From Podarcis liolepis (taxonomy: Eukaryota), in NCBI GenBank assembly GCA_965112155.1, contig OZ218115.1: a DNA stretch of 64,000 nt; one strand, written 5' to 3'. Every line of letters begins with the position of its first letter. The first letter of the stretch is position 1. Below the pieces are notes generated by a model. It was not told the DNA's origin. It ran no database searches and saw only the letters and a list, made by a program, of their open reading frames with translations. Positions 2,822 through 64,000 of the stretch are shown in pieces. The position numbers and the translations under genes are program-made.

Positions 2822-3429
2822 CAGTGCTTTTTTCCTTTTAAAAAAATGTTTAGGGGTACTCTCATTTCCCGTTGTTGTTTAGTCATTTAGTCGTGTCCGA
2901 CTCTTCATGACTCCATGGACCAGAGCACGCCAGGCACTTCTGTCTTCCACTGCCTCCTGCAGTTTGGTCAAACTTATGCTGGTAGCTTCGAGAACACTAT
3001 CCAACCATCTCATCCTCTGTCGTCCCCTTCTCCTTGTGCCCTCCATCTTTCCCAACATCAGGGTCGTTTCCAGGGAGTCTTCTCTTCTCATCAGGTGGCC
3101 AAAGTATTGGAGCCTCAGCTTCAGGATCTGTCCTTCCAGTGAGCACTCAGGGCTGATTTCCTTCAGAATGGAGAGGTTTGATCTTCTTGCAGTCCATGGG
3201 ACTCTCAAGAGTCTCCTCCAGCACCATAATTCAAAAGCATCAGTTCTTCGGCAATCAGCCTTCTTTATGGTCCATCTTTCACCTCCATACATCACTACTG
3301 GGAAAACATCACTTCCATACTCATTTCCCTACTCATATTGAAATACTGCCCCTCAATGAGACCAAACTTAGATTAACAAAATGTTTAGGCGTATGCGTAC
3401 TCCTGCGTCCCCCCAGAAAAAAAGCACTG
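2822..3429. mobile_element. Non-autonomous hAT MITE interrupted by a BovB fragment
   Basis: TIRs CAGTGCTTTTTT / AAAAAAGCACTG; 8-bp TSD CTTAAGTG (2814-2821) vs CTTAAGTA (3430-3437). Confidence 0.8.
2871..3319 (-). mobile_element. 5'-truncated BovB (RTE-clade LINE) 3' end
   Basis: ORF 2879-3295 gives the BovB C-terminus (DAFELWCWRRLLRVPWTARRSN...LKLRLQYFGHLMRR); (CAA)n tail; 10-bp TSD CTCATTTCCC at 2861-2870 and 3320-3329. Confidence 0.93.
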
Positions 3430-6400
3430 CTTAAGTAGAAAGAAAAACCCTCAACAGAGGCAGCCACACACAGCACTACTTCTTCACCAGGGCACAGTGA
3501 TGCACTTCTTAGGCTTTTGTCAGACTCCAACAGCACAGTGAGATTTGGGGATCCTTTATCAGAGGGACCGAACAACTGCTCAGGGCCTACTTTCATAATA
3601 ATAGCACTGCAGTTCAATGCCTTCTGCAGGTGAACGATGATAAGTGCTTTTTATTTGTCTTTGTTCTGCTGCCTGTCAGTTTTACTTGTGTGTCCCCTAC
3701 CTCTTGTATTATGAGAAAATATAACTTAAGTTTTCCCTGGTTGCCATTTCTACATCATCCATATGGTTCATAAAATGCATACCCTATCACATATATAAAA
3801 AAGATATAGCTATACAGCAGTGCTTACGACTGAACCGGGAATAAAATGGATTATTATTCTGTGTAAATGTGAGTATTGTAAACTGACCTAGACCCTAGAG
3901 TTCTCCTCTTTCTTTCTTTCTTTTCAGTGGCTGGAATTTTAATGGGTGGAGGATAATGCACTAACAGGAAGGGAAATGAAAAGGGAAAGTATTTGTAAGG
4001 TACAGGAAATTCGTTTTTTGCTGTCATTTATTTGCTTAAGGGACCGTTAGGGTTGAGTTGGCATTTCCTCAAAGACTCTTTTATGTACAGAGAAAGTGTC
4101 GAAATACATTTACAGCAAGGACGGCTCTTGCTTTTAGATTGCAAGCCATTTGTAACCCCTGGGTTTAGTAATTGCTGTTGATAAAAGGAGGTATCAAGGT
4201 AAACAGAGATCATCACCACAGCAGCAGCATCCACACTGCTGCAATTGAGCTGGTGGCAAGCTCTCCCTGTTCAGGGTTGACTACCTGACCTATAGGAGCG
4301 ATGCAGCAGCTGAAACACTCAGTATATTGAAATGCTTGCCCCCGTGTATCATAATCTGAGAAAAAAATTGAATTGTGTAACCAGGAGAGAGGGATATTTT
4401 TCAAGATCACTGGCAGTCATGCATAAGCCTCTTTCTATTGGGGCTATTTAGAACTGGGTTATTTCTACTGCATATAATTGAGTTGTTAATTCTAGTTTCA
4501 TCGTAACTTGGATGCAATTTGATTATTTTGTTTTAATTCTTCACTGCCTTCAATATCCCTGCATTCATTCATTTACACAGAAAGGCGGTCTGCAAATAAA
4601 ACTACATTTTTAAATGTTGTAAATGTATTTAAATAGTCCAGAAGGGAGCCATTCTCCAGTCCTGGGGCCTGAAATGCAGCAGGCAGAAGATAAGAATAGA
4701 AGGCAAGGCTTGTCGTTTTTATATAATGTGGCCAATTTCAGAGTCTTGTAACCCACCTGGATTCACCAAAAGACCCATCTGGTCTTGTTTCCTGCTTCCT
4801 GCAGCAGGTGCATCGAAAAAGCCCATAACTAGGGCAGAAAGGATGCAGTTATTTCTCAGTAGCTGGTAATTCAGAAGCAGAGAGTCTCTGATTCCATCTG
4901 ATATGCAAATATTGAACCCATTCTCCAAGTGTGGATCCTTATGTAGTCAGCAGGCACAAACAAATTTTGCAGAAATTGCATTCTCACAGGGCACAGCATG
5001 ATGGCTGACATTTGGGAATGTGGGGAAAAGAATGCAATGGAGAATTCTGGAAGAAGACATGGCTGTCCTCAGACGCTTTACGTTTCCATCATAGGGAAGG
5101 TGCTCCAAAACTGATAATTTTAGCTGCAACCCTGCCCCTTTGTTTGTTTGTTTGTTTTCCTCCTCTTCTAGCTCTACAGCAACTTTTCCCCTTCGCCTGC
5201 CAATTGCAGAGTCTGATGCTGCATTTTCTTGTTCCATTCTGGGGCCGAAGAATATGTACATGTGATACCAAGCTTGGCCCTAGCTTTAGGTTCTTACCAG
5301 TATTTAAGGTACAAAATAGGTGTATCAGCCATTACTAGCAAAATGTAAATTTATTGTATAGGAGAGGCAGGTAAAGAGGCCCTGGAAAGAGCTCCTGGTC
5401 CTATAACCACAAGAGCTGTCTTTAAACACCTGTGCACACTTGTCTTTCATACTTTCCACGTTTCGTGCAGGAAACAAAAGTGTACACAGTTTATGCAGCA
5501 ATTTCCCACTTATAGAGGATGCCCTCTGGCTATCCTGCATTACTGCACTGCCAACACCAGGTGGTGCTATATAAAGCTATTATGTCACCACAGCCCACAC
5601 ACCACTGTGCCATAGAGCCCCTTGGTTTTTGGAACAGTATTTTAATCTGGTAACCCAACTGAGGCTGGATTTCTAACCCCACGTACCTGGAAGTAAGCCC
5701 CATTGAGTTCTACAGCACTAACTTCTCTGTAGGTGTGGTTGGGACTGCATCCTAATAACTTAGAAATGAAAACAAACAAAACAAAAAAAATGTGTGCAGT
5801 TTTATGTACTGGCATTAAGTTCTGTGTCACGGCAAGTTTAGGATCATTTTTTGCACAGAATTCTAGATCCCATAGCTATAAGCTGCTCCATGAGTGCAGA
5901 CAAAGGACAAGTACTTATTATACTCTGCAGTGTTTAACCAGTTGGGGAAATTGCAATGTGATCGAATTAAAATATATTCCTGTAATAATGAAACATGTGC
6001 CTCACTTTGGGCAAACATCTGTCTTTGTCTTAGGCTGGAACTATACATTATGCTCTCACTCTATTATGCCGTTTGCTGCTATTTGCCGGGGGGAACTTGG
6101 AGAGCACTGAAGCCATGTCAGTTTTTGAATGACCAGATATTACTGGGGAGATGGTGGAAATGAGATGCAGCGCTGCTGTTTTTTTTAAAAAAAAGCAGCC
6201 AAGAATCGTCCACAGTGTCTAGTTCAAGGTGATATATACTATCTGTTGCCTCACTGGCAATGTTTAAAATAGACATGCTACAAATCCCGCTAAAGATTGC
6301 GTCTTGCGATCCTAACCTCTCACCCCCATTGAATCCAACTTTCTTCTGAGTAGATATGGTTAGGATAAGGCTATCAGATTTTTTTTTTAATGAATCTGGG

Positions 6401-13000: not shown

Positions 13001-13299
13001 TATGTGGACCTGAACTATCTACAGCAGTGTTTCCCAACCTTTTTTGGGCAAAGGCACACTTGTTTCATGAAAAAAATCTCGAGGCACACCACCATTACAG
13101 CCCCGTGACGTCAGCGCGCAGCGTCACGCCGGGAGGGACATGAATTGCTAGCAAATTACATAATCACCTCCTTGAGGGCTGGCTCATCTTCTCTGAAGGC
13201 AGAACCCCATTAATTAACAGCACAGACTCACACCATAGCCAAGACGAGGGGGGAAAACCTCAGTCATGCACAGTCATGCACATGTGGGGGCTAAATGAG

Positions 13300-14318
13300 G
13301 ACGAAGACCGGGCAGAGAGCAGGGTTCAAATCACCCCACCTGGCCAGGACAATCCCTGGGTGCTCCCTTGGGCCACTCGCCTGACCCACCTCGCAGGGCT
13401 GTTGTTGCGAGGATAACACGGGGAGAACCACGCGCGCCCCCGGGAACTCCTTGGAGGAGAAAGCGGGCGATGAATGCAATGCACGAAATATATGAGAGGC
13501 GACCAGGTTTTGCAGGTGAGGGGCCCCCGCCAGCCTCCGCTTCCAACACCCGGCGCAACGACGCCGAAGTTTCCCCCCGGGCTCGGCTCGGGGAGCAGCG
13601 CTGCTCCCCCCCACGGCTCCCCTTCGCCCTCCCGGCTCTCTCTGCCGCCCACTGGGGACCCCCCTCACCTGCCAAGTCCGGAGCGCCGGTGGAAGTTGCA
13701 TGCATGCATGCAGGGCGCCGCGTTGCCATTGCATTGCACTGCACTCCATGCAACGCCTGCACGCATGCATTGCCTTGCACGCCCGCCAAGGGGTCTCCCC
13801 GCGGTCCGATGCGTCCCCTCCGGCGTGGATGCAGCATTGCAAAAATAAAAAACCCCCGACGCAGCCCTACCTGGGGGGCAGCCTCCGCCTCCGCCGCTCC
13901 GCCTCCGCGGGGATCCCCGGGCTCCATCCTGCCGCCCGATCTCCGCGGGGGCGCAGGCAGGCTGCGTGGGGTCTGCGCGGAAGAGCCCCTGCCCGCCCGG
14001 CCGCCGCCGCTGCGCTCATTCCATGGCCGGGAGAAGAGCGCTTCAAACAAAACGCCCGTCCCGCCAGGCCACGCTGGGAAACGTAGTTTGCGCACCCCGT
14101 GCGGGCGCGGAGCCCAAGGGCGAGGGGACTACGGATCCCGGCAGCCCCCGCGCCGGGGACGGAGGGGGAGAGGCCGGGTGCAGGGATGGAGGGACGGGTG
14201 AGCGAGCGAGTGAGTGAGTGGCAGCCACCAAGCCTTGGCCGAGAGCCAGGAAGGGCCTCCCCGGAGGAGGAGGAGGAGGGAGGCGCAGAGCGGGAAGGAG
14301 GGAGGGAACCCCAGGGGT
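13300..14318. promoter_or_regulatory. CpG-island-like, promoter-like segment carried inside the hAT element
   Basis: Very high GC and CpG density against AT-rich flanks; two divergent ZNF143/SBS-like motifs (ACTACGTTTCCCAGCGTGGCC on minus, 14067-14088; ACTACGGATCCCGGCAGCCCCCGC on plus, from 14128); TGCGCA at 14089; GC-box-like sequence. Confidence 0.6.
13871..13927 (-). pseudogene. Putative captured first coding exon (MEPGDPRGGGAAEAEAAPQ) followed by a splice donor
   Basis: Strong Kozak AGGATGG, 19 codons, then CAG|GTAGGG donor; ~140 bp downstream of a ZNF143-like motif. Parent gene not identified. Confidence 0.45.
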
Positions 14319-14901
14319 CATCTAGTGACGGCACCCCAATCGAAAATTTGACTTTTTTAAAAAGAAAAAAATCTTTCGAATTTTTTAATTTTTCCCGCGG
14401 CACACCAGGCAACATCTCGCGGCACACTAGTGTGCCGCGGAACAGTGGTTGGGAAACACTGATCTACAGTATCCCCCTGCTGGCCCAGGGTGAGAACTTC
14501 AGTACATAACACAGGGAAAGTTAATTGTTTGGAGACGTGTATATTTTACAAGGACGAATGCATGGAAGTTTTATAAACACAGTGCATAATAATAAAATAA
14601 CAAAAGCAATACATCATGTGGCAATCAATCAGGACACAGGTTGGAAAGACTGACTCACCGAAATGTCTGAATAACGAAAAGGGGTTGACCAGTGTAGTCA
14701 TTCTATATCAGCACAAAAAAGGTGCAGTTAAGTGGAAGGAGCAGCATGGCATTAGTGGAAGACTGGCAGCTCACACACTGAGCACCCACTGGGAAGTAGG
14801 GGAGGAAGCTTCTGTGCTCAGCACCATTGGTAGGAGCTGCATAGCTTCCACATATAGGGCTGGCATGGCAAAGATAAAAAGGCAAAGTAGATTGGTAGGA
14901 A

Positions 14902-48246: not shown

Positions 48247-48659
48247 ATTGCGCGGACAGGCGGAGTCCCCAGATCCTGCACGGCCCCCCCTGTCATGTGG
48301 AATAACGACTCAAGACAACGTGCTATGGGATTAAATTGGCCACAACTTTATTAAATTTCAAATGTGGGTAGACCTTGGCTCAGGCATTGGGCGTTCTCCC
48401 TCCCTGGTCCCCCGCCGGGGACCTAGGGAGCATCAGGGTTATCCAGTGTGTGTGTGGGGGATGGGCCGGCTCTGGAGAACATATGTTCAAGCAGAGATGG
48501 CCGCCCCCGTAACGCCGCCGCCGCAGGAGAGAGCAATGACGACCTTTCGGTGTACGGCCAAAGCCTCCCTTCAGAAAACCCCTTTAATGGGGAACCCTGG
48601 TATCGCCGCCGCAAGAGGAAGATGGACAAAAGGATTCCGCCCAAGGCCTGATACCGCCA
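48247..48659 (-). repeat. Split direct repeat B2 (413 bp)
   Basis: No difference seen by eye against 49107-49519 (offset 860); minus-strand AATAAA at 48347-48352. Confidence 0.95.
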
Positions 48660-48843
48660 AAGTTGTGACGTTTTGCTACGGGAAAGGCGAAACCTGCCAA
48701 TGCAGGGAAATTCCTTTCCGGCCCTTTAACAGCGACCTTAACGTAGCAGCGCCCGCATACCTGTGAAGAAACGTTAACCTGCAAAACCTGTGAAGAAAAG
48801 TTAACCTGCAAAATAAGACATTAACTGAGGGTGGGTAGGGTGG

Positions 48844-49109
48844 GAGAAGCTCTGGAGCCAAGTGAGGATTCCTAGGTAAGATCCTCCCTCTATTGTGTGG
48901 GCAGGTAATCCCTCCCCTACCTGGCCTGGTCTCCTTGGCAACGCTTCCCCCAGGTGGGATTGGACAACTGACTGAGGTAGGCGGAGACCTCCAGGTATCC
49001 CACCTGAGGGAAGGCAAAGCCAAGCCTATGCTGTTGGGGCGCTCCAGATCTAGGGGCTGCACGCGCCCGCGCAAAGGGCGCCCCCCGTTTTAAGTGGGGA
49101 GCGGTCATT
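48844..49109 (-). repeat. Split direct repeat A2 (266-bp shared part)
   Basis: No difference seen by eye against 53125-53390 (offset 4281). Confidence 0.95.
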
Positions 49110-49519
49110 GCGCGGACAGGCGGAGTCCCCAGATCCTGCACGGCCCCCCCTGTCATGTGGAATAACGACTCAAGACAACGTGCTATGGGATTAAATTGGC
49201 CACAACTTTATTAAATTTCAAATGTGGGTAGACCTTGGCTCAGGCATTGGGCGTTCTCCCTCCCTGGTCCCCCGCCGGGGACCTAGGGAGCATCAGGGTT
49301 ATCCAGTGTGTGTGTGGGGGATGGGCCGGCTCTGGAGAACATATGTTCAAGCAGAGATGGCCGCCCCCGTAACGCCGCCGCCGCAGGAGAGAGCAATGAC
49401 GACCTTTCGGTGTACGGCCAAAGCCTCCCTTCAGAAAACCCCTTTAATGGGGAACCCTGGTATCGCCGCCGCAAGAGGAAGATGGACAAAAGGATTCCGC
49501 CCAAGGCCTGATACCGCCA
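49107..49519 (-). repeat. Split direct repeat B1 with polyadenylation signal
   Basis: Copy of B2; minus-strand AATAAA at 49207-49212. Confidence 0.95.
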
Positions 49520-49559
49520 CCCGAGACCGCAAAGATTGCGGTCTCGCCGCCAAGACTAC

Positions 49560-50157
49560 CTACATCTGAAAAACGCCTTTGCCATCCTCCAACCAGTCCA
49601 TCAGGCCATGCCTGATGTCGCTTAGCCAACGCTCATTGCCAAGGTCCGATAGGTGCACGCCATCCGGCCGAAATAGCTCCTGCATGTAAACTTTAATGTT
49701 GGGGTGTTTCACGACCCGACCTCCCATGCGAGTGGTTGCAGAGCGCACTGCCCTATTGATTTTTTTCCACAGTGTAATTGAGTCTAGTGGGTTTGATGTT
49801 GCCACGCCAATGCAAGCGTGGTAAAAGTTCGGACCAGAAAATCGTGATACTGGGGTGAGTGGCGTGTACGCTTTCCAGGTCTGCGATCGCTGTTTTGATC
49901 AGAATTATGCTTTTTTGCACGACCAAGTCATTTTCGCCGAGGTGGAGCACAACCGCGCTTGGCGGGTGGCGGAACGCAAGTTCGTGACGCAACCGAGGGA
50001 GCAGGGCATCCCACCGCATTCCACGTTGTCCGAACCAGGTAATGGAGATCTTTGGCTGCAGACCCAGATGTTCACCGCCTGGACCAGCAATGGCGTGGAT
50101 GGCCGCCCAATGCACTATTCTGTGGCCGAAGATCCACACATGTTTGGGGGTTGAGTC
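49560..50157 (-). pseudogene. SGNH/GDSL-type hydrolase (esterase) ORF of the Ngaro element, frameshifted in this copy
   Basis: Block I-like WIFGH(R)IV with R at the usual Ser position, block II G (GQRGMRW), block III LHLGENDL, block V DGVHLS; split over ORFs 49753-50139 and 49560-49805, probably at an A7 run near 49760-49766. Confidence 0.82.
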
Positions 50158-50169
50158 TGAAAGAAAGGA

Positions 50170-51078
50170 TTATATGGTATCTGTCAGTGCCTGCTGGTTG
50201 TGTCTAATGTAGCCTTTGAAGGCAGCTGAACGCCACCGCCCCATTGTTTTTATGTGTTCGGCCGGGAGGCCGCTCGCAGCTGCCGTGGTTGCTGCACCAA
50301 TGCGAAAAGAATGCCCGGAAAATTGTGCCGGGTCGCCTCCACAGGCATGTATGGCCTTACGCAATATTGAGACAAATTGGCAACGGGTCATGGGGCGGCC
50401 TGATGCATGAATGAGGAGGGGGCCTGGTCCCGGAGGGCGTACCTTCAGGAATTTTCGTGTGTCCGCGACGGGGCATGGTCCAGTGTGTGGGGAGGAGGCT
50501 AGACTTAGCGTGGAACCCCTGCCCAGTTGATCGGTTTTGGAGCTTCGGATTTTGACCTGTATCATGTGCTTGTCAAGGTTGATATCAGCCACAGACAAGC
50601 CCCTGCGATGAGGTGACAGTGTGCCCCCAACGCACTCTCCGATACGGAGCGCACCAAAGAAGGCCAGGGAGAAGGCCGCCCTGAAGAGCCTAACCTCATA
50701 GTTGGACCAGCAAATGCTGGGGAGCGCATCCCATATCGTCTGGAGGATCTCAATGGTTACTGGCCTCCTCTTATCTGGAATGGGCGGGTGGGAGCGACGC
50801 CACCCTGCAATAAGCTTCCTTACGTGGAAAGTGTTACAGGGGTCTGGGAACCAAAAACAGTTGCTGAAGTATGAGATAGCGGCCTTGTGCAGGCTGATGG
50901 TCTTAAGGGCCATGCCTCTACGCTTTAGGTGAACCAAATATTTTAGAACATCATGCTCCTTAGCAGCACGTCTGCGTCGTAAACCAAACTTATCTCTGAA
51001 CCCCTCGAATTGGGACCATGCTCTGGTAGAGGACTGCAATGTTGATGGTGCAAGGGCGCTCAGTACTCCTGCTGTCAC
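50170..51078 (-). CDS. Tyrosine recombinase (YR) of the Ngaro element
   Basis: Catalytic residues in FFGALRIGE (R), SKTDQ (K), GHSFRIGAAT (HxxR), MGRWRSAAFKGYIR (W, Y); frame stays open upstream of the GTG to at least 51165. Confidence 0.93.
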   Translation of the reverse strand: MTAGVLSALAPSTLQSSTRAWSQFEGFRDKFGLRRRRAAKEHDVLKYLVHLKRRGMALKTISLHKAAISYFSNCFWFPDPCNTFHVRKLIAGWRRSHPPIPDKRRPVTIEILQTIWDALPSICWSNYEVRLFRAAFSLAFFGALRIGECVGGTLSPHRRGLSVADINLDKHMIQVKIRSSKTDQLGRGSTLSLASSPHTGPCPVADTRKFLKVRPPGPGPLLIHASGRPMTRCQFVSILRKAIHACGGDPAQFSGHSFRIGAATTAAASGLPAEHIKTMGRWRSAAFKGYIRHNQQALTDTI

Positions 51079-52697
51079 TTCTCTCGTCCAAGTTCCCAGA
51101 GGTCCTCCGGAAAGGCTTCTGGGAGTTGATCGGCCTCGGGTGCTAGGTCGCGAAAACGCTCCATCTGAAAGCGAGACAGGGCATCTGCAATGTCGTTATT
51201 GAGGCCGGGGATGAACCGCGCGGAAAAGGAGATGTTACCTTTCAGACATTCCAGCACGAAGAGGCGGAGCACGCGAATTACCCTGTTGGATTTTGCAGAT
51301 TGCTTCGCGATGATTCTTACCACCGCCTGGTTGTCCGACCAGAAGCACACCCTGGTGTCCTTGAGGAGGTGCCCCCAAACCCGGAGAGCCACTAGGATTG
51401 GGAAGAACTCAAGAAAAGTTAAATCGCGTGTAATGCCCTCCGCGTGCCAAGCTGTCGGCCACGGCTGCGCACACCAGTGACCCCTGAAGTAGACACCAAA
51501 GCCAAAGCGACCAGAGGCATCGGAGTGCACCTGTAGCTGTTCCTTAGGCAGCAGCCAATCTTGCCAAAAGGACACCCCATTGTAACTTTCCAGGAAGGTC
51601 AGCCATATTTTGAGGTCCTCCCTTATGGTGTGTGTGACCCTAATGTGGTGATGGGGGGCACCACCGCCAGCCGTGAGGCGGGCTAGGCGTGCGCAAAAGG
51701 CGCGACCGGGCGAGATAACCCTGCATGCAAAATTGAGGTGTCCTAGGAGTGTCTGGACCTGACGCAATGTGGTCTTCTTCTGGGCCATCATGGTAGTTAT
51801 CAATTCCCGCAGCGTGGCGAGTTTGGCCGGGGGCAGGCGAGAGGTTTGACTGACAGAATCCAGTTCAATACCCAGATATGAGATGACAGTGGTTGGACCT
51901 TCGGTCTTGTCTGCTGCCAGTGGAATGCCTAGTTCAGCCGCCAGCTGAATGAAGCATGCCAGCGCCCTAGCGCATGCGTCTGAGCCCGCTGGCTGCACGA
52001 AAAAGTAGTCATCCAGGTAATGGGAAATGCAGTGGGACCCCGACCTGCGTTTCATGGCCCATTCCACGAATGTGCTGAAGGTTTCAAATGCAGCGCATGC
52101 GATGGAACAGCCCATGGGCATAGCTTTGTCAAAGTACCATTGGTCCTGGAATTTGAAACCTAGCAACCAGAAGTCCCTGGGGTGGACTGGTAACAGACGG
52201 AAGGCTGATTCGATGTCACATTTTGCCATGAGTGCGCCCGGGCCACACTCCCTAACCAGCCTGATTGCCTGATCAAGAGATGCATATTTGACTGAGCATT
52301 GTTCTTCGGGAATGGCATCATTTACTGACCCACCCTTTGGGTAAGAAAGGTTATGTATTAATCGAAACTCGGCTGGTGCCTTCTTAGGGACAATACCCAG
52401 TGGGGACACTATGAGGTTAGGAAATGGAGGTTCTGTGAAGGGACCTGCCACTCGCCCCAGCAAGCATTCTTTGGTGATCTTCTTCTCGGCAATGTGTGGC
52501 ATATCTCGGACAGACTTTTGGTTGGGAGGATTGGTGCATGAGGGGGTGCCTACCACTGGGATGCGGAAACCTTCCTTAAAACCCTCCTCAATGTATTTTG
52601 CTGCCTCTTTATTGGGGTACTGGTGTAACAATGGCAGCATTGCTGATAGAGATATGGGTGAGGGGGCTAGGGAAAGGAGAGCACTATTTGCGGGCAT
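51075..52697 (-). CDS. Reverse transcriptase-RNase H of the Ngaro element
   Basis: SPLGIVPKK, KCDIESAFRLLP, MPMG, YLDD; RNase H motifs SDASG, FLEFFP, SDNQAVV, NDIADALSR; uninterrupted 540 aa. Confidence 0.96.
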   Translation of the reverse strand: MPANSALLSLAPSPISLSAMLPLLHQYPNKEAAKYIEEGFKEGFRIPVVGTPSCTNPPNQKSVRDMPHIAEKKITKECLLGRVAGPFTEPPFPNLIVSPLGIVPKKAPAEFRLIHNLSYPKGGSVNDAIPEEQCSVKYASLDQAIRLVRECGPGALMAKCDIESAFRLLPVHPRDFWLLGFKFQDQWYFDKAMPMGCSIACAAFETFSTFVEWAMKRRSGSHCISHYLDDYFFVQPAGSDACARALACFIQLAAELGIPLAADKTEGPTTVISYLGIELDSVSQTSRLPPAKLATLRELITTMMAQKKTTLRQVQTLLGHLNFACRVISPGRAFCARLARLTAGGGAPHHHIRVTHTIREDLKIWLTFLESYNGVSFWQDWLLPKEQLQVHSDASGRFGFGVYFRGHWCAQPWPTAWHAEGITRDLTFLEFFPILVALRVWGHLLKDTRVCFWSDNQAVVRIIAKQSAKSNRVIRVLRLFVLECLKGNISFSARFIPGLNNDIADALSRFQMERFRDLAPEADQLPEAFPEDLWELGREK

Positions 52698-53124
52698 TGT
52701 TCTTGCTTTGCTGAGCGCCAGAGGGGCCTGTAGAGGCTCCGGCCTCTCTTTTGTCTTGAGATGTGCCTGCGCCTGATCCGCGGGGGCCTCGAAAAAGCTT
52801 CTTCCCCCGAAAACATTTCATGGTGGGGTGAGATCCACCACAGCGCTCGCATTCATGAGCAAAGCGACATTTTTCTCTGAGGCAGGAGCCGTTGTTATAC
52901 TCCCAGCAAGATCTCTTGGGGGCCTTGGATTGATATTTGGACTGTTTCACATTGTCGGGCCCTTTCTTGAAGAACGGGGCAACCAACTCAGACCACACAT
53001 CATCATCTTTGATATCCCATCTAACTGTGTCGTCCTCTGCCGCCCGTTCCCTGAATGCCTGGTCATAGGCGAGTGCCGCCTCCCCCCCAGACATGGCTTC
53101 AGCCTTTAGGATGATGAGTAGGTA
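52684..53124 (-). CDS. gag-like ORF1, C-terminal part only (probably 5'-deleted)
   Basis: YDQAFRERAA...WDIKDDDVW motif and tandem zinc fingers CWEYNNGSCLREKCRFAH / CERCGGSHPTMKC. The in-frame upstream portion up to 53355 is just repeat A1. Confidence 0.8.
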   Translation of the reverse strand, partial: YLLIILKAEAMSGGEAALAYDQAFRERAAEDDTVRWDIKDDDVWSELVAPFFKKGPDNVKQSKYQSKAPKRSCWEYNNGSCLREKCRFAHECERCGGSHPTMKCFRGKKLFRGPRGSGAGTSQDKREAGASTGPSGAQQSKNNARK

Positions 53125-53390
53125 GAGAAGCTCTGGAGCCAAGTGAGGATTCCTAGGTAAGATCCTCCCTCTATTGTGTGGGCAGGTAATCCCTCCCCTA
53201 CCTGGCCTGGTCTCCTTGGCAACGCTTCCCCCAGGTGGGATTGGACAACTGACTGAGGTAGGCGGAGACCTCCAGGTATCCCACCTGAGGGAAGGCAAAG
53301 CCAAGCCTATGCTGTTGGGGCGCTCCAGATCTAGGGGCTGCACGCGCCCGCGCAAAGGGCGCCCCCCGTTTTAAGTGGGGAGCGGTCATT
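53125..53390 (-). repeat. Split direct repeat A1 (5' terminus of the element)
   Basis: Copy of 48844-49109. Confidence 0.95.
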
Positions 53391-53889: not shown

Positions 53890-54093
53890 TTACAGAACCC
53901 TATTTTTTGTAAAGTTAATTATTATTTCCATTTTATAATGTACATAAAGCAGAGAGAACGATTCTAACAATGGACAAAAATTGAAATATGAAACACAAAA
54001 CTATAAAATAGGCATTTAGAATGAGTAGTTGCACATGAGTTAAAATAATAGAGTTCAAGTCATGAAGTTATCAGGTCATCAAATATAGTTCCA

Positions 54094-54870
54094 GAAGTAC
54101 TGTTTCGGGGCGGGAAGGTGGGGGGGACTCCCCGAATGGAGTAATTGTGCCCCTAAAGGACCAGGTGTGCAGCTTGGGAGTCATTTTGGACTCACAGATG
54201 TCCATGGTGGCACAGGTCAGTTTTGTGTCTGGGACAGCTGTCTACCAGCTCCATCTGGTATGCTGGCTGAGACTCTACCTGCCTGCGCATTGTCTCACCA
54301 GAGTGGTGCATGCTCTGGTTATCTCCTGCTGGGACTGCTGCAATGCGCTCTGTGTGAAGGTGACCCAGAAACTACAACTAATCCAGAATGCAGCAGGTAG
54401 ACTGGTGACTGGGAGTGGCCACCAAGGCCACATAACACCGGTCTTGAAAGACCTACATTGGCTCCAAGTACGTTTCCGAGCACAATTCAAAGTGTTGATG
54501 CTGACCTTTAAAGCCCTAAACTGCCTTGGCCCAGTATACCTGAAGGAGCATCTCCACCCCCATTGTTCAACCTGGGCACTGAGGTCCAGCTCTGATGGCC
54601 TTCAGGTGGTTCCCTTACTTTGAGAAGTGAAGTTACAGGGAAGCAGGCAGAGGACCTTCTTGGTAGTGGCTCCTGCCCTGTGGAAAGCCCTCCCATCAGA
54701 TGTCAAGGAAATAAACAACTATACAACTTTTAGAAGACATCTGAAGGCAGCCCTGTTCAGGGAAGTTTTTAGTGTGTGCTGTTGCATTGTGCTTTTATAT
54801 TAATTATGCTGGGACCTGCCCTGGTTGCCTGCAGTAACCCAGTCAGCAGCATATAAAATTATTATTATTA
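54094..54870 (+). mobile_element. L2-clade LINE 3' fragment
   Basis: ORF 54147-54623: SLGVILDSQMSM...LQLIQNAAGRLVTG...HITPVLKDLHWL. Confidence 0.88.
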
Positions 54871-61532: not shown

Positions 61533-62070
61533 GTTGTTGTTGTTGTTGTTGTTTAGTCGTTTAGTCGTGTCTGACTCTTTGTGACCCCATGGACCAGAGC
61601 ACGCCAGGCACTCCTGTCTTCCACTGCCTCCCGCAGTTTGGTCAAACTCATGCTGGTAGCTTCGAGAACACTATCCAACCATCTTGTCCTCTGTCGTCCG
61701 CGTCTCCTTGTGCCCTCCATCTTTCCCAACATCAGGGTCTTTTCCAGGGAGTCTTCTCTTCTCATGAGGTGGCCAAAGTATTGGAGCCTCAGCTTCACGA
61801 TCTGTCCTTCCAGTGCACACTCAGGGCTGATTTCCTTAAGAATGGATAGGTTTGATCTTCTTGCAGTCCATGGGACTCTCAAGAGTCTCCTCCAGCACCA
61901 TAATTCAAAAGCATCAATTCTTCGGCGATCAGCCTTCTTTATGGTCCAGCTCTCACTTCCATATGTCACTACTGGAAAAACTATAGTTTTAACTATACGG
62001 ACCTTTGTTGGCAAGGTGATGTCTCTGCTTTTTAGGATGCTGTCTAGGTTTGTCATTGCTTTCCTCTCAT
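61533..62070 (-). mobile_element. 5'-truncated BovB LINE
   Basis: ORF 61553-62056: MTNLDSILKSRDITLPTKVRIVK...DAFELWCWRRLLRVPWTARRSN; (CAA)n tail; 10-bp TSD ACTATCTCAT at 61523-61532 and 62071-62080. Confidence 0.94.
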
Positions 62071-63032
62071 ACTATCTCATACTTTATGTTAAACATACTG
62101 TAAAGGTAAATTGGAGGTTATAGGCCACCTTTAGTTCCTGTAGAAAGAATAAACAAATGAAATGTTCATCTCGTGCTGTAAGCAACTTCATGATGGTGAA
62201 GGTGAGAGTAGATACGCTAAGAAAAAAAGAGGTAGCCAAGCTAGTCTTAGCATGAGATGATCAAAGAAACAGTGGAAATAGTTGCTGAAAGCATTGGTGC
62301 AGGGAGAAGAATTACTTTTGTGTAATGGAATTGCAGTGCAAGCATAGCCAAAAAAAAGCCGGAACAACCTGGCAGACGTTTTGCAGAGAACATGGGCTTA
62401 ATTTCCCTTTTCCTCCATATCCTTTTTTATAAAAGAAGAATCTGTCTCTTGAATCTGCCTAAATATGACTAAGAAGACATTTCTGTGGAATAACCTTTCT
62501 AGAAGTAACAAAGCGTGATCTTCCTTAATTTGTTGATCCGAGTCTGCTCTCCCAATTAGTGTTTTAATTGCTGGCTTGAAACATTAATATCATTCAGAAA
62601 ATTCCACCATGGCACTTTGCCCCCAAGGTTTTCCGGGGAGAAAGGCATTACATTTAATTTATCTTTTCAAAAACAATTAGTTGTTTTGGAAACCTCAGTT
62701 GCACGCAAAGATTTCAAAGTGAGGTGCAGTCTGTAGAAAGTAGTGAGTTCATATGAATTGTCAAATTACTTTCATTTTTTGTATTCATGAGAAAGGACGG
62801 GGGCATTTTCATGCCTGTGAAATAATTATGACAATCCACATGACGTGGTTTTTTTCCTTTCAAACATGATTTCATCCTTCCATTGAGAAGGTTTGGCTGG
62901 GATTATCTCCATTTGACAAGAAGGGGTGGTACTGCTCCCTGTCACCATTGCTACCTTACTGGAGCACTCCCGAAACAGGAACAGGCACAGTGCTTCCCAA
63001 ACAATGGTGGGCAGGAAGTTGAAGAAGAAGAA

Positions 63033-63151: not shown

Positions 63152-63507
63152 GCAATAAAACATCAAACATTAAAATCTTCCCTAAACAGGGCTGCCTTCA
63201 GATGTCTTCTAAAAGTCAGAAAGTTGTTTATTTCTTTGAAATCTGATGGGAGGGTGTTCCACAGGGTGGGCACCATTGCCTGGTTCCCTGTAACCTCACT
63301 TCTCGCAGTGAGGGAACTGCCAAAAGGCCCTCGGTGCTGGATCTCAGTGTCCGGGCTGAACGATGGGAGTGGAGACGCTCCTTCAGGTATACTGAGCCAA
63401 GGCAGTTTAGGGCTTTAAAGGTCAGCACCAACACTTTGAATTGTGTTCGGAAACATACTGGGAGCCAATGTAGGTCTTTCAGGACCAGTGTTATATGGTC
63501 TCAGCGG
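63033..63507 (-). mobile_element. L2-clade LINE 3' fragment
   Basis: Reverse-complement similarity to 18371; ORF 63228-63434 VLTFKALNCLGSVYLKERL. Confidence 0.86.
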
Positions 63508-64000
63508 AATGTCACAAGTGCTTCATCCACTAATACTGGCCATGTTGCTGGCTCCATTGAGTTGAATCACAGACCAGTGAGCCAGTGGAATGGTGGTTTA
63601 CCACCTCTGCCATATAATAAGAACTGGATTTTGGCCACTTCTCAATGTTATAGGAACTCCATTCGTCTCCACCCCCCACCCCCTACAGGGAACCAGAGCC
63701 CTAAGCTGAGTGTATTTCAGGAGAAATGTGTGGCTATTACATTTAATAACAATATTATTAACTTATTTTTTACACTTTCCCTTTTTATCGCTGTGATCTG
63801 GACAGTTTTAAAAGACTCTGAAAAGTAACTGTTGTGTAATAATAAACAAACAAACAAAAGAAATGCCCCACAATTTTTTTCAGCAATTCCCACCCCACCT
63901 TGAAAGGCATCATTTCCTGAAGGAGGTGTTCAGCATATGTCTCCAACAAGCCTTTACCAGCCACAGATGACAAGCTTTTGCCAAGTCTTTAAAACTTCTT

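Follow-up and report, generated by a model that had tools for sequence, protein, structure and literature searches.

Ngaro retrotransposons likely express their recombinase and hydrolase as Gag fusions through alternative splicing

How Ngaro retrotransposons express a tyrosine recombinase (YR) and a hydrolase that lack an ATG was open, the standing suggestion being frameshifting. We find one phase-1 splice donor within gag and two phase-1 splice acceptors, one ahead of the YR and one ahead of the hydrolase, and propose that four proteins are likely made from one transcript, a reading to which we give a probability of about 0.88. The signals are in place, in phase and conserved, and both DNA copies and contigs are joined exactly at them. 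The YR and the hydrolase are thus likely produced as Gag fusions by alternative splicing, and not by ribosome slippage.

In the proposed mechanism, RNA left unspliced at the gag donor would yield Gag and, by a +1 frameshift that the reverse transcriptase (RT) would need, a predicted Gag-RT/RNase H (Gag-Pol). If the gag donor is spliced to the YR acceptor, the predicted product is GagN-YR (584 aa in the full-length copy L035); if it is spliced to the hydrolase acceptor, GagN-hydrolase (451 aa in L035). The shared Gag N-terminus, which is basic, Arg/Ser-rich and ~205-280 aa long, would supply the start codon to both enzymes and is probably a targeting or RNA-binding module. The spliced RNAs would retain the terminal repeats and occasionally be copied back into the genome by reverse transcription, which would explain the joined copy L026 described below.

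Knowing the exact junctions and the true N-termini is needed for a transposition assay, for an antibody and for the biochemistry of recombinase and hydrolase. Splicing also accounts for the freezing of an acceptor within RNase H codons, and under it host splicing factors are expected to be able to turn the element on or off in a tissue-dependent way. It further implies that, among the RefSeq genes of lizards and frogs that have several isoforms and are called "uncharacterized", many represent Ngaro copies, and the acceptor offers a route by which Ngaro insertions capture host exons. We lean towards extending the scheme to animal Ngaro elements generally (lizards, frogs, marine invertebrates): their products would be Gag, Gag-Pol made through a PA-X-type +1 shift and, through alternative 3' splicing, GagN-recombinase and GagN-esterase, with Gag N as a shared targeting tag, a YR acceptor hundreds of millions of years old in the ALSRFQ codons, and the trapping of host exons in frame by that acceptor.

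The element in the window

The window, by which we mean the whole 64,000-nt stretch of Podarcis liolepis DNA analyzed here, holds a 5'-deleted Ngaro retrotransposon at 48247-53390 on the minus strand, assigned by its repeats, gene order and domain content (Table 1). Split direct repeats of the form A1 ... B1 A2 B2 define the Ngaro-like YR retrotransposons (PMC9210276, sections consulted). The element has these repeats, the order gag, RT/RNase H, tyrosine recombinase, and, after the YR, an SGNH hydrolase, which is optional in Ngaro-like elements; a methyltransferase domain is absent. A DIRS1-like identity was rejected because the element has direct repeats only and no methyltransferase, whereas DIRS1-like elements have inverted terminal repeats, an internal complementary region and a methyltransferase. 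A PAT-like identity was rejected as well, since PAT-like elements combine split direct repeats with a methyltransferase (PMC7192593, sections consulted).

Table 1. Features of the Ngaro element, in window coordinates
Feature	Position	Strand	Remarks
Split direct repeat A1	53125..53390	-	Ends at internal deletion
gag 3' remnant	52684..53125	-	With a Cys/His finger (presumed label)
RT/RNase H ORF	51075..52817	-	+1 frame relative to gag; without methyltransferase domain
Predicted +1 frameshift site, gag to RT	52789..52797	-	CTT_TTT_CGA
Acceptor-like phase-1 site before RT	52667..52682	-	Not conserved, probably not functional
YR splice acceptor	51165..51182	-	Polypyrimidine-CAG within RNase H ALSRFQ; phase 1
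Tyrosine recombinase exon	50170..51164	-	331 codons from junction codon; PF00589
Hydrolase acceptor	50157..50189	-	Branch-like CACTGAC, YR stop TAA, polypyrimidine-CAG; phase 1
SGNH-type hydrolase exon	49560..50156	-	Broken in window copy
Repeat B1	49107..49519	-	
Repeat A2	48844..49109	-	
Repeat B2	48247..48659	-	Beyond 184-nt spacer

The gag has no Pfam hit and was named from its position and Cys/His motif, and the Pfam match of the hydrolase in L035 (PF13472, E 5.8e-6) falls below the curated cut-off. The window copy is defective: a deletion of ~2.8 kb at 53125, equivalent to L035 458-3275, has taken away the leader together with the start of gag and its splice donor, and the hydrolase has a frameshift in an A-run (49760-49766) and reads GHR in place of GHS. 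An annotated Podarcis muralis protein matches its YR with 98% identity.

A preliminary description of this DNA had proposed an acceptor AG for the YR at 51166-51165 (CCCTGTCTCGCTTTCAG/ATGG; here and below a slash marks the junction) and one for the hydrolase at 50158-50157 (TAATCCTTTCTTTCAG/ACTC). Both are present and in phase 1 to their respective ORFs, and the two sites rank 2nd and 5th by a crude pyrimidine score among the 308 AG dinucleotides of the element. As had been stated, the YR is open from its acceptor on, as far as the TAA at 50172-50170, and it has no suitable ATG: the first in-frame one lies at 50913, 84 codons past the acceptor (codon 95 of the stop-to-stop YR ORF, 55 codons beyond the RT end). 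The placement of the hydrolase in the YR frame behind one TAA is likewise true of the window copy.

Several other observations concern neighboring DNA and related copies. Within the A2-B2 spacer, at window 48760-48830 on the minus strand, acceptor-like motifs are repeated (TTTTGCAG/GTTAAC, TTCACAG/GT). A 1.4-kb GC-rich element at window 13026-14462, with CAGTGTTTCCCAAC as inverted repeats at its bounds and ATCTACAG as a direct duplication of 8 bp, resembles a non-autonomous hAT transposon, and fragments at 54066-54623, 61553-62071 and 63247-63828 read like the RT tails of non-LTR retrotransposons, presumably RTE or L2-like. In the assembly G000 a first look gave 1341 hydrolase candidates, along with numerous Ngaro families that are young and intact, clustered on contig C20. 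An expanded subfamily, represented by thirteen copies (L037-L049) that have a 270-nt RT deletion in common, is probably a non-autonomous lineage: its YR is broken, and its hydrolase contains tandem duplications. Seven copies (L036, L038, L039, L042, L021, L026, L050) end at B1, with no A2-B2; such ends would be expected from recombination of B1 with B2 or from another kind of integration product.

Splice signals and frames across copies and families

In L035, gag is initiated by an ATG, encodes 550 aa and carries the donor CAG/GTAGGT after codon 253, in phase 1. A single upstream phase-1 donor had been predicted, in either the 5' region or gag, and gag is where it was found. Intact copies have it without exception (21/21), 206-280 codons past the first Met. 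We further assembled a set of 60 loci from diverged families, hand-picked among the 150 hydrolase matches listed (40-51% identity), together with 3 copies of the window's family; of the 35 loci that hold the region, 33 have a phase-1 G/GTA donor 44-53 nt ahead of a common gag anchor. The window's family also has a GT-AG leader intron (L035 494-1880). Between A1 and the gag start of L035 there are 17 ATGs, placed within the leader intron by reading, and leader splicing in this family would remove them. Searches of 9 other families found neither a leader donor nor a conserved leader intron. We also considered as a candidate the phase-1 donor at L035 1726, which has ATGs upstream of it; it sits inside the L026 leader intron.

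The preliminary description had proposed cross-element conservation of the acceptors and of their phase as a check, and this is borne out for both. At the hydrolase, YAG occurs at one offset and phase in 61/63 loci, down to 40% protein identity, while the next best offset reaches 11 loci, and the upstream non-coding letters differ among loci. A branch-like motif precedes the acceptor in 56 of the 61 (16 expected from shuffles), and the pyrimidine fraction before it is 0.79 versus 0.50. Such conservation of non-coding signals across families that are 40-50% identical in protein points to selection.

The YR acceptor lies within coding sequence, and synonymous codon choice is informative there. 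Among 11 lizard family representatives (61-90% RT identity), the Gln at the acceptor is CAG in all 11 (background 0.60), and the Ser and Arg of ALSRFQ are TCY and CGY, again in 11/11 (backgrounds 0.47 and 0.40). The pattern extends to a distant set of 80 metagenome loci with YRs 27-45% identical, which, minus 16 without the motif and 11 duplicates, left 53 elements. Gln is found at the YR site in 44 of these, encoded by CAG in 43 (background 0.50), a count that, like the other conservation counts, comes from related families and elements and does not represent independent trials. Moreover, six of the seven distant elements without AG at the YR site (L209, L223, L244, L255, L270, L273) have a CAG two codons later and in the same phase, which is the case in 7 of the 46 others. 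YAG, phase 1 and an open frame are satisfied together in 33/53 distant elements, the remainder including frameshifted copies. The YR frame meets a stop 6-10 codons upstream of the acceptor and is open for 28-39 codons to the RT stop in 20/21 intact copies; control windows were stop-free in 29/177. A candidate third acceptor, likewise in phase 1 and located ahead of RT (window 52666), was discarded, having an AG in only 14 of 37 loci.

The RT lies in the +1 frame of gag, and is open there, in 21/21 intact copies. All 21 carry TTT_CGN, mostly as CCC_TTT_CGN, at a common place 35-39 codons past the first Cys of the gag finger; the motif is in the gag frame in L035 and among L106-L165. We think it probable that the RT is reached by a +1 frameshift at TTT_CGN, a call based on the conservation of the motif, whose PFRG could also be a protein constraint.

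Joined copies, contigs and gene models

The genomic copy L026 shows the exact loss of two segments of L035: 494-1880 (the leader intron, GT-AG) and 2825-6244 (gag donor to hydrolase acceptor). By comparison, 0/8 other distinct deletions in the family have GT..AG ends, the window's own and the 270-nt RT deletion included. L026 is the only joined copy among the 21 candidates that hold the donor region. In a sister family, the donor is joined to the YR acceptor in L168 and L169, which represent one event, duplicated; their parent, L189, has a 2379-nt GT-AG intron at the corresponding place. The proposal that one donor is alternatively spliced to YR or hydrolase thus finds support in the joined copies of L026 and of sister families, although the window copy itself has no donor. 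These joined copies would have arisen by splicing followed by reverse transcription.

Two contigs bear on the YR acceptor, each a single contig whose junction was read from its loose end, from runs only guessed to be RNA. In X6, the loose end before the acceptor corresponds to the gag donor exon of the L110 family, from which, compared by eye, it differs at 4 of 26 letters. In X7, it is a host lipase exon (PF04083) joined to the YR acceptor, with 30 letters on the lipase side (33 with the shared CAG); in G000 this exon ends at a phase-1 GT donor. The 9.9-kb stretches beside five lipase exons hold no YR-bearing copy, only an A-spacer-B remnant. This solo remnant (L203:3571-4420, in the lipase cluster G000:C5) has a lipase exon (L203:1607) in the same orientation 1964 nt upstream of it, which suggests a polymorphic insertion that trapped the host lipase transcript and was reduced by A1 x A2 recombination in the G000 assembly.

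The search for RNA junctions called for in the preliminary description gave a divided answer: the joints tables of 8 of the 24 listed runs (X1, X2, X23, X24, X3, X6, X7, X13) on L035:191-6880 contain no splice joint, whereas the contigs X6 and X7 do join exons to the YR acceptor. Raw RNA reads in the set X1, X2, X23, X24 amounted to only 13 and 6 (19 in total). Several contigs cross both acceptors unspliced, as would genomic RNA, intronic copies or DNA. Junction-pattern searches in G000 were without match in 4/5 cases, and one gave 2.

Among RefSeq proteins, all of them predicted gene models, P0004 is identical in layout to the expected fusion, with a 253-aa GagN and the junction SPSSS/DGAFSRP. 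Two isoforms of a single Zootoca locus, P0006 and P0001, have 207 aa in common, after which one continues into YR and the other into hydrolase. A protein-level junction signature occurs in 15/43 RT-free long YR proteins, 11 being not anchorable; being weak, it was not counted as support. A vomeronasal receptor gene model, P0002, includes part of the hydrolase of the window's family (78% identity), possibly through exon capture or an annotation merge.

Competing explanations and known systems

The YR shares 28-39 codons with the tail of RNase H, in the -1 frame, and could instead be made as Gag-Pol-YR through a -1 frameshift in this RT/YR overlap, the CAG being an accident of conserved RNase H codons. 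According to a quotation in PMC13003380, Poulter and Butler (2015) proposed programmed frameshifting for the Ngaro YR, and the open overlap is compatible with a shift as well. However, the overlap has no canonical X_XXY_YYZ heptamer in 20/21 intact copies, and a shift does not account for the synonymous fixation of CAG and its compensatory same-phase displacement, for the joining of both a host exon and the gag donor to the YR AG, or for the gag donor and the hydrolase acceptor. We consider this explanation improbable for the bulk of the YR, though a minor -1 product may be made. Even less probable is that the hydrolase arises by read-through of the YR stop or from its own ATG by leaky scanning or reinitiation. 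Read-through, which the preliminary description had offered as an alternative, suits the window copy with its single TAA and common frame; it fails as a general route, as only 8/21 intact copies have the hydrolase in frame with the YR and the gap from YR stop to acceptor varies from 13 to 76 nt. As for ATGs, whose presence had been named as a check, 20/61 hydrolase ORFs have one in frame just after the acceptor and some intact copies have upstream ATGs, but the window's family has none ahead of the catalytic motif. Neither route explains why a non-coding acceptor, a branch motif and a phase are all fixed, nor the joined copy L026.

It might also be argued that the joined copies arose as microhomology deletions and that the gene models are ab initio guesses, the sites being real but rarely or aberrantly used. 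Donor and acceptor both end in TCAG, and the second junction of L026, L168/L169 and X6 share 5-7 letters, so that DNA deletion can mimic these three junctions; other deletions in the family overlap by 0-9 letters, and the 8 mapped runs gave no splice joints. Yet the overlap is limited to AG at the leader junction of L026 and to CAG at the lipase junction, two exact GT-AG losses coincide within one copy, and the non-coding signals are conserved over the diverged families. We regard this account, too, as very improbable, and alternative splicing from the gag donor remains our preferred reading.

The closest described relatives are the Xenopus elements DIRS-53_XT and DIRS-54_XT, Ngaro-like with an SGNH hydrolase ORF, which have the same A1...B1 A2 B2 repeats and gene order and no methyltransferase (PMC9210276). 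In the sections consulted, that paper treats the ORFs as overlapping frames and makes no mention of splicing, whereas in our reading the YR and the hydrolase each form an exon that is attached to the front part of gag. The model of Poulter and Butler (2015) agrees with ours in that the YR overlaps the RT/RH end in the -1 frame (quoted in PMC13003380); it differs in that the evidence here favors splicing for the YR and a +1 frameshift for the RT. The candidate +1 site resembles the PA-X cassette of influenza A, UCC_UUU_CGU, with UUU_CGN in the zero frame and the downstream ORF in +1 (PMC5009743). Unlike in PA-X, the 5' codon in Ngaro is mostly CCC, and the frameshift would be the sole route to the RT; the consulted parts of that frameshift review (PMC5009743) mention neither DIRS nor Ngaro. 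We found no report of spliced Ngaro expression, either by literature search or in the consulted parts of PMC9341512, PMC3783388, PMC9210276, PMC6681497, PMC7192593, PMC13003380, PMC4495291, PMC3266345, PMC4157794 and PMC5009743, a set without the two primary Poulter-lab papers (Goodwin and Poulter's of 2004 and that of Poulter and Butler from 2015), and priority is not certain.

The preliminary description had likened the scheme to the expression of retroviral env, and the likeness is partial: one donor is joined to a downstream acceptor, skipping pol, but the downstream ORF does not start at an ATG of its own, and the products would be Gag-N fusions carrying ~205-280 aa of Gag, not free-standing proteins. 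The retroviral env ORF starts at its own ATG, with some retroviruses adding a few Gag codons. Retroviruses and the env of gypsy use spliced subgenomic mRNAs. Spliced gag RNAs are also reported from Ty1/Copia and BARE (PMC5580714, PMC3735527). Retroviruses, gypsy, Ty1/Copia and BARE likewise set protein ratios by splicing part of the genomic RNA; Ngaro would differ from retroviral, gypsy and Copia splicing in that the donor lies inside gag, that two acceptors give N-terminally identical fusions, and that the integrating enzyme is among the products.
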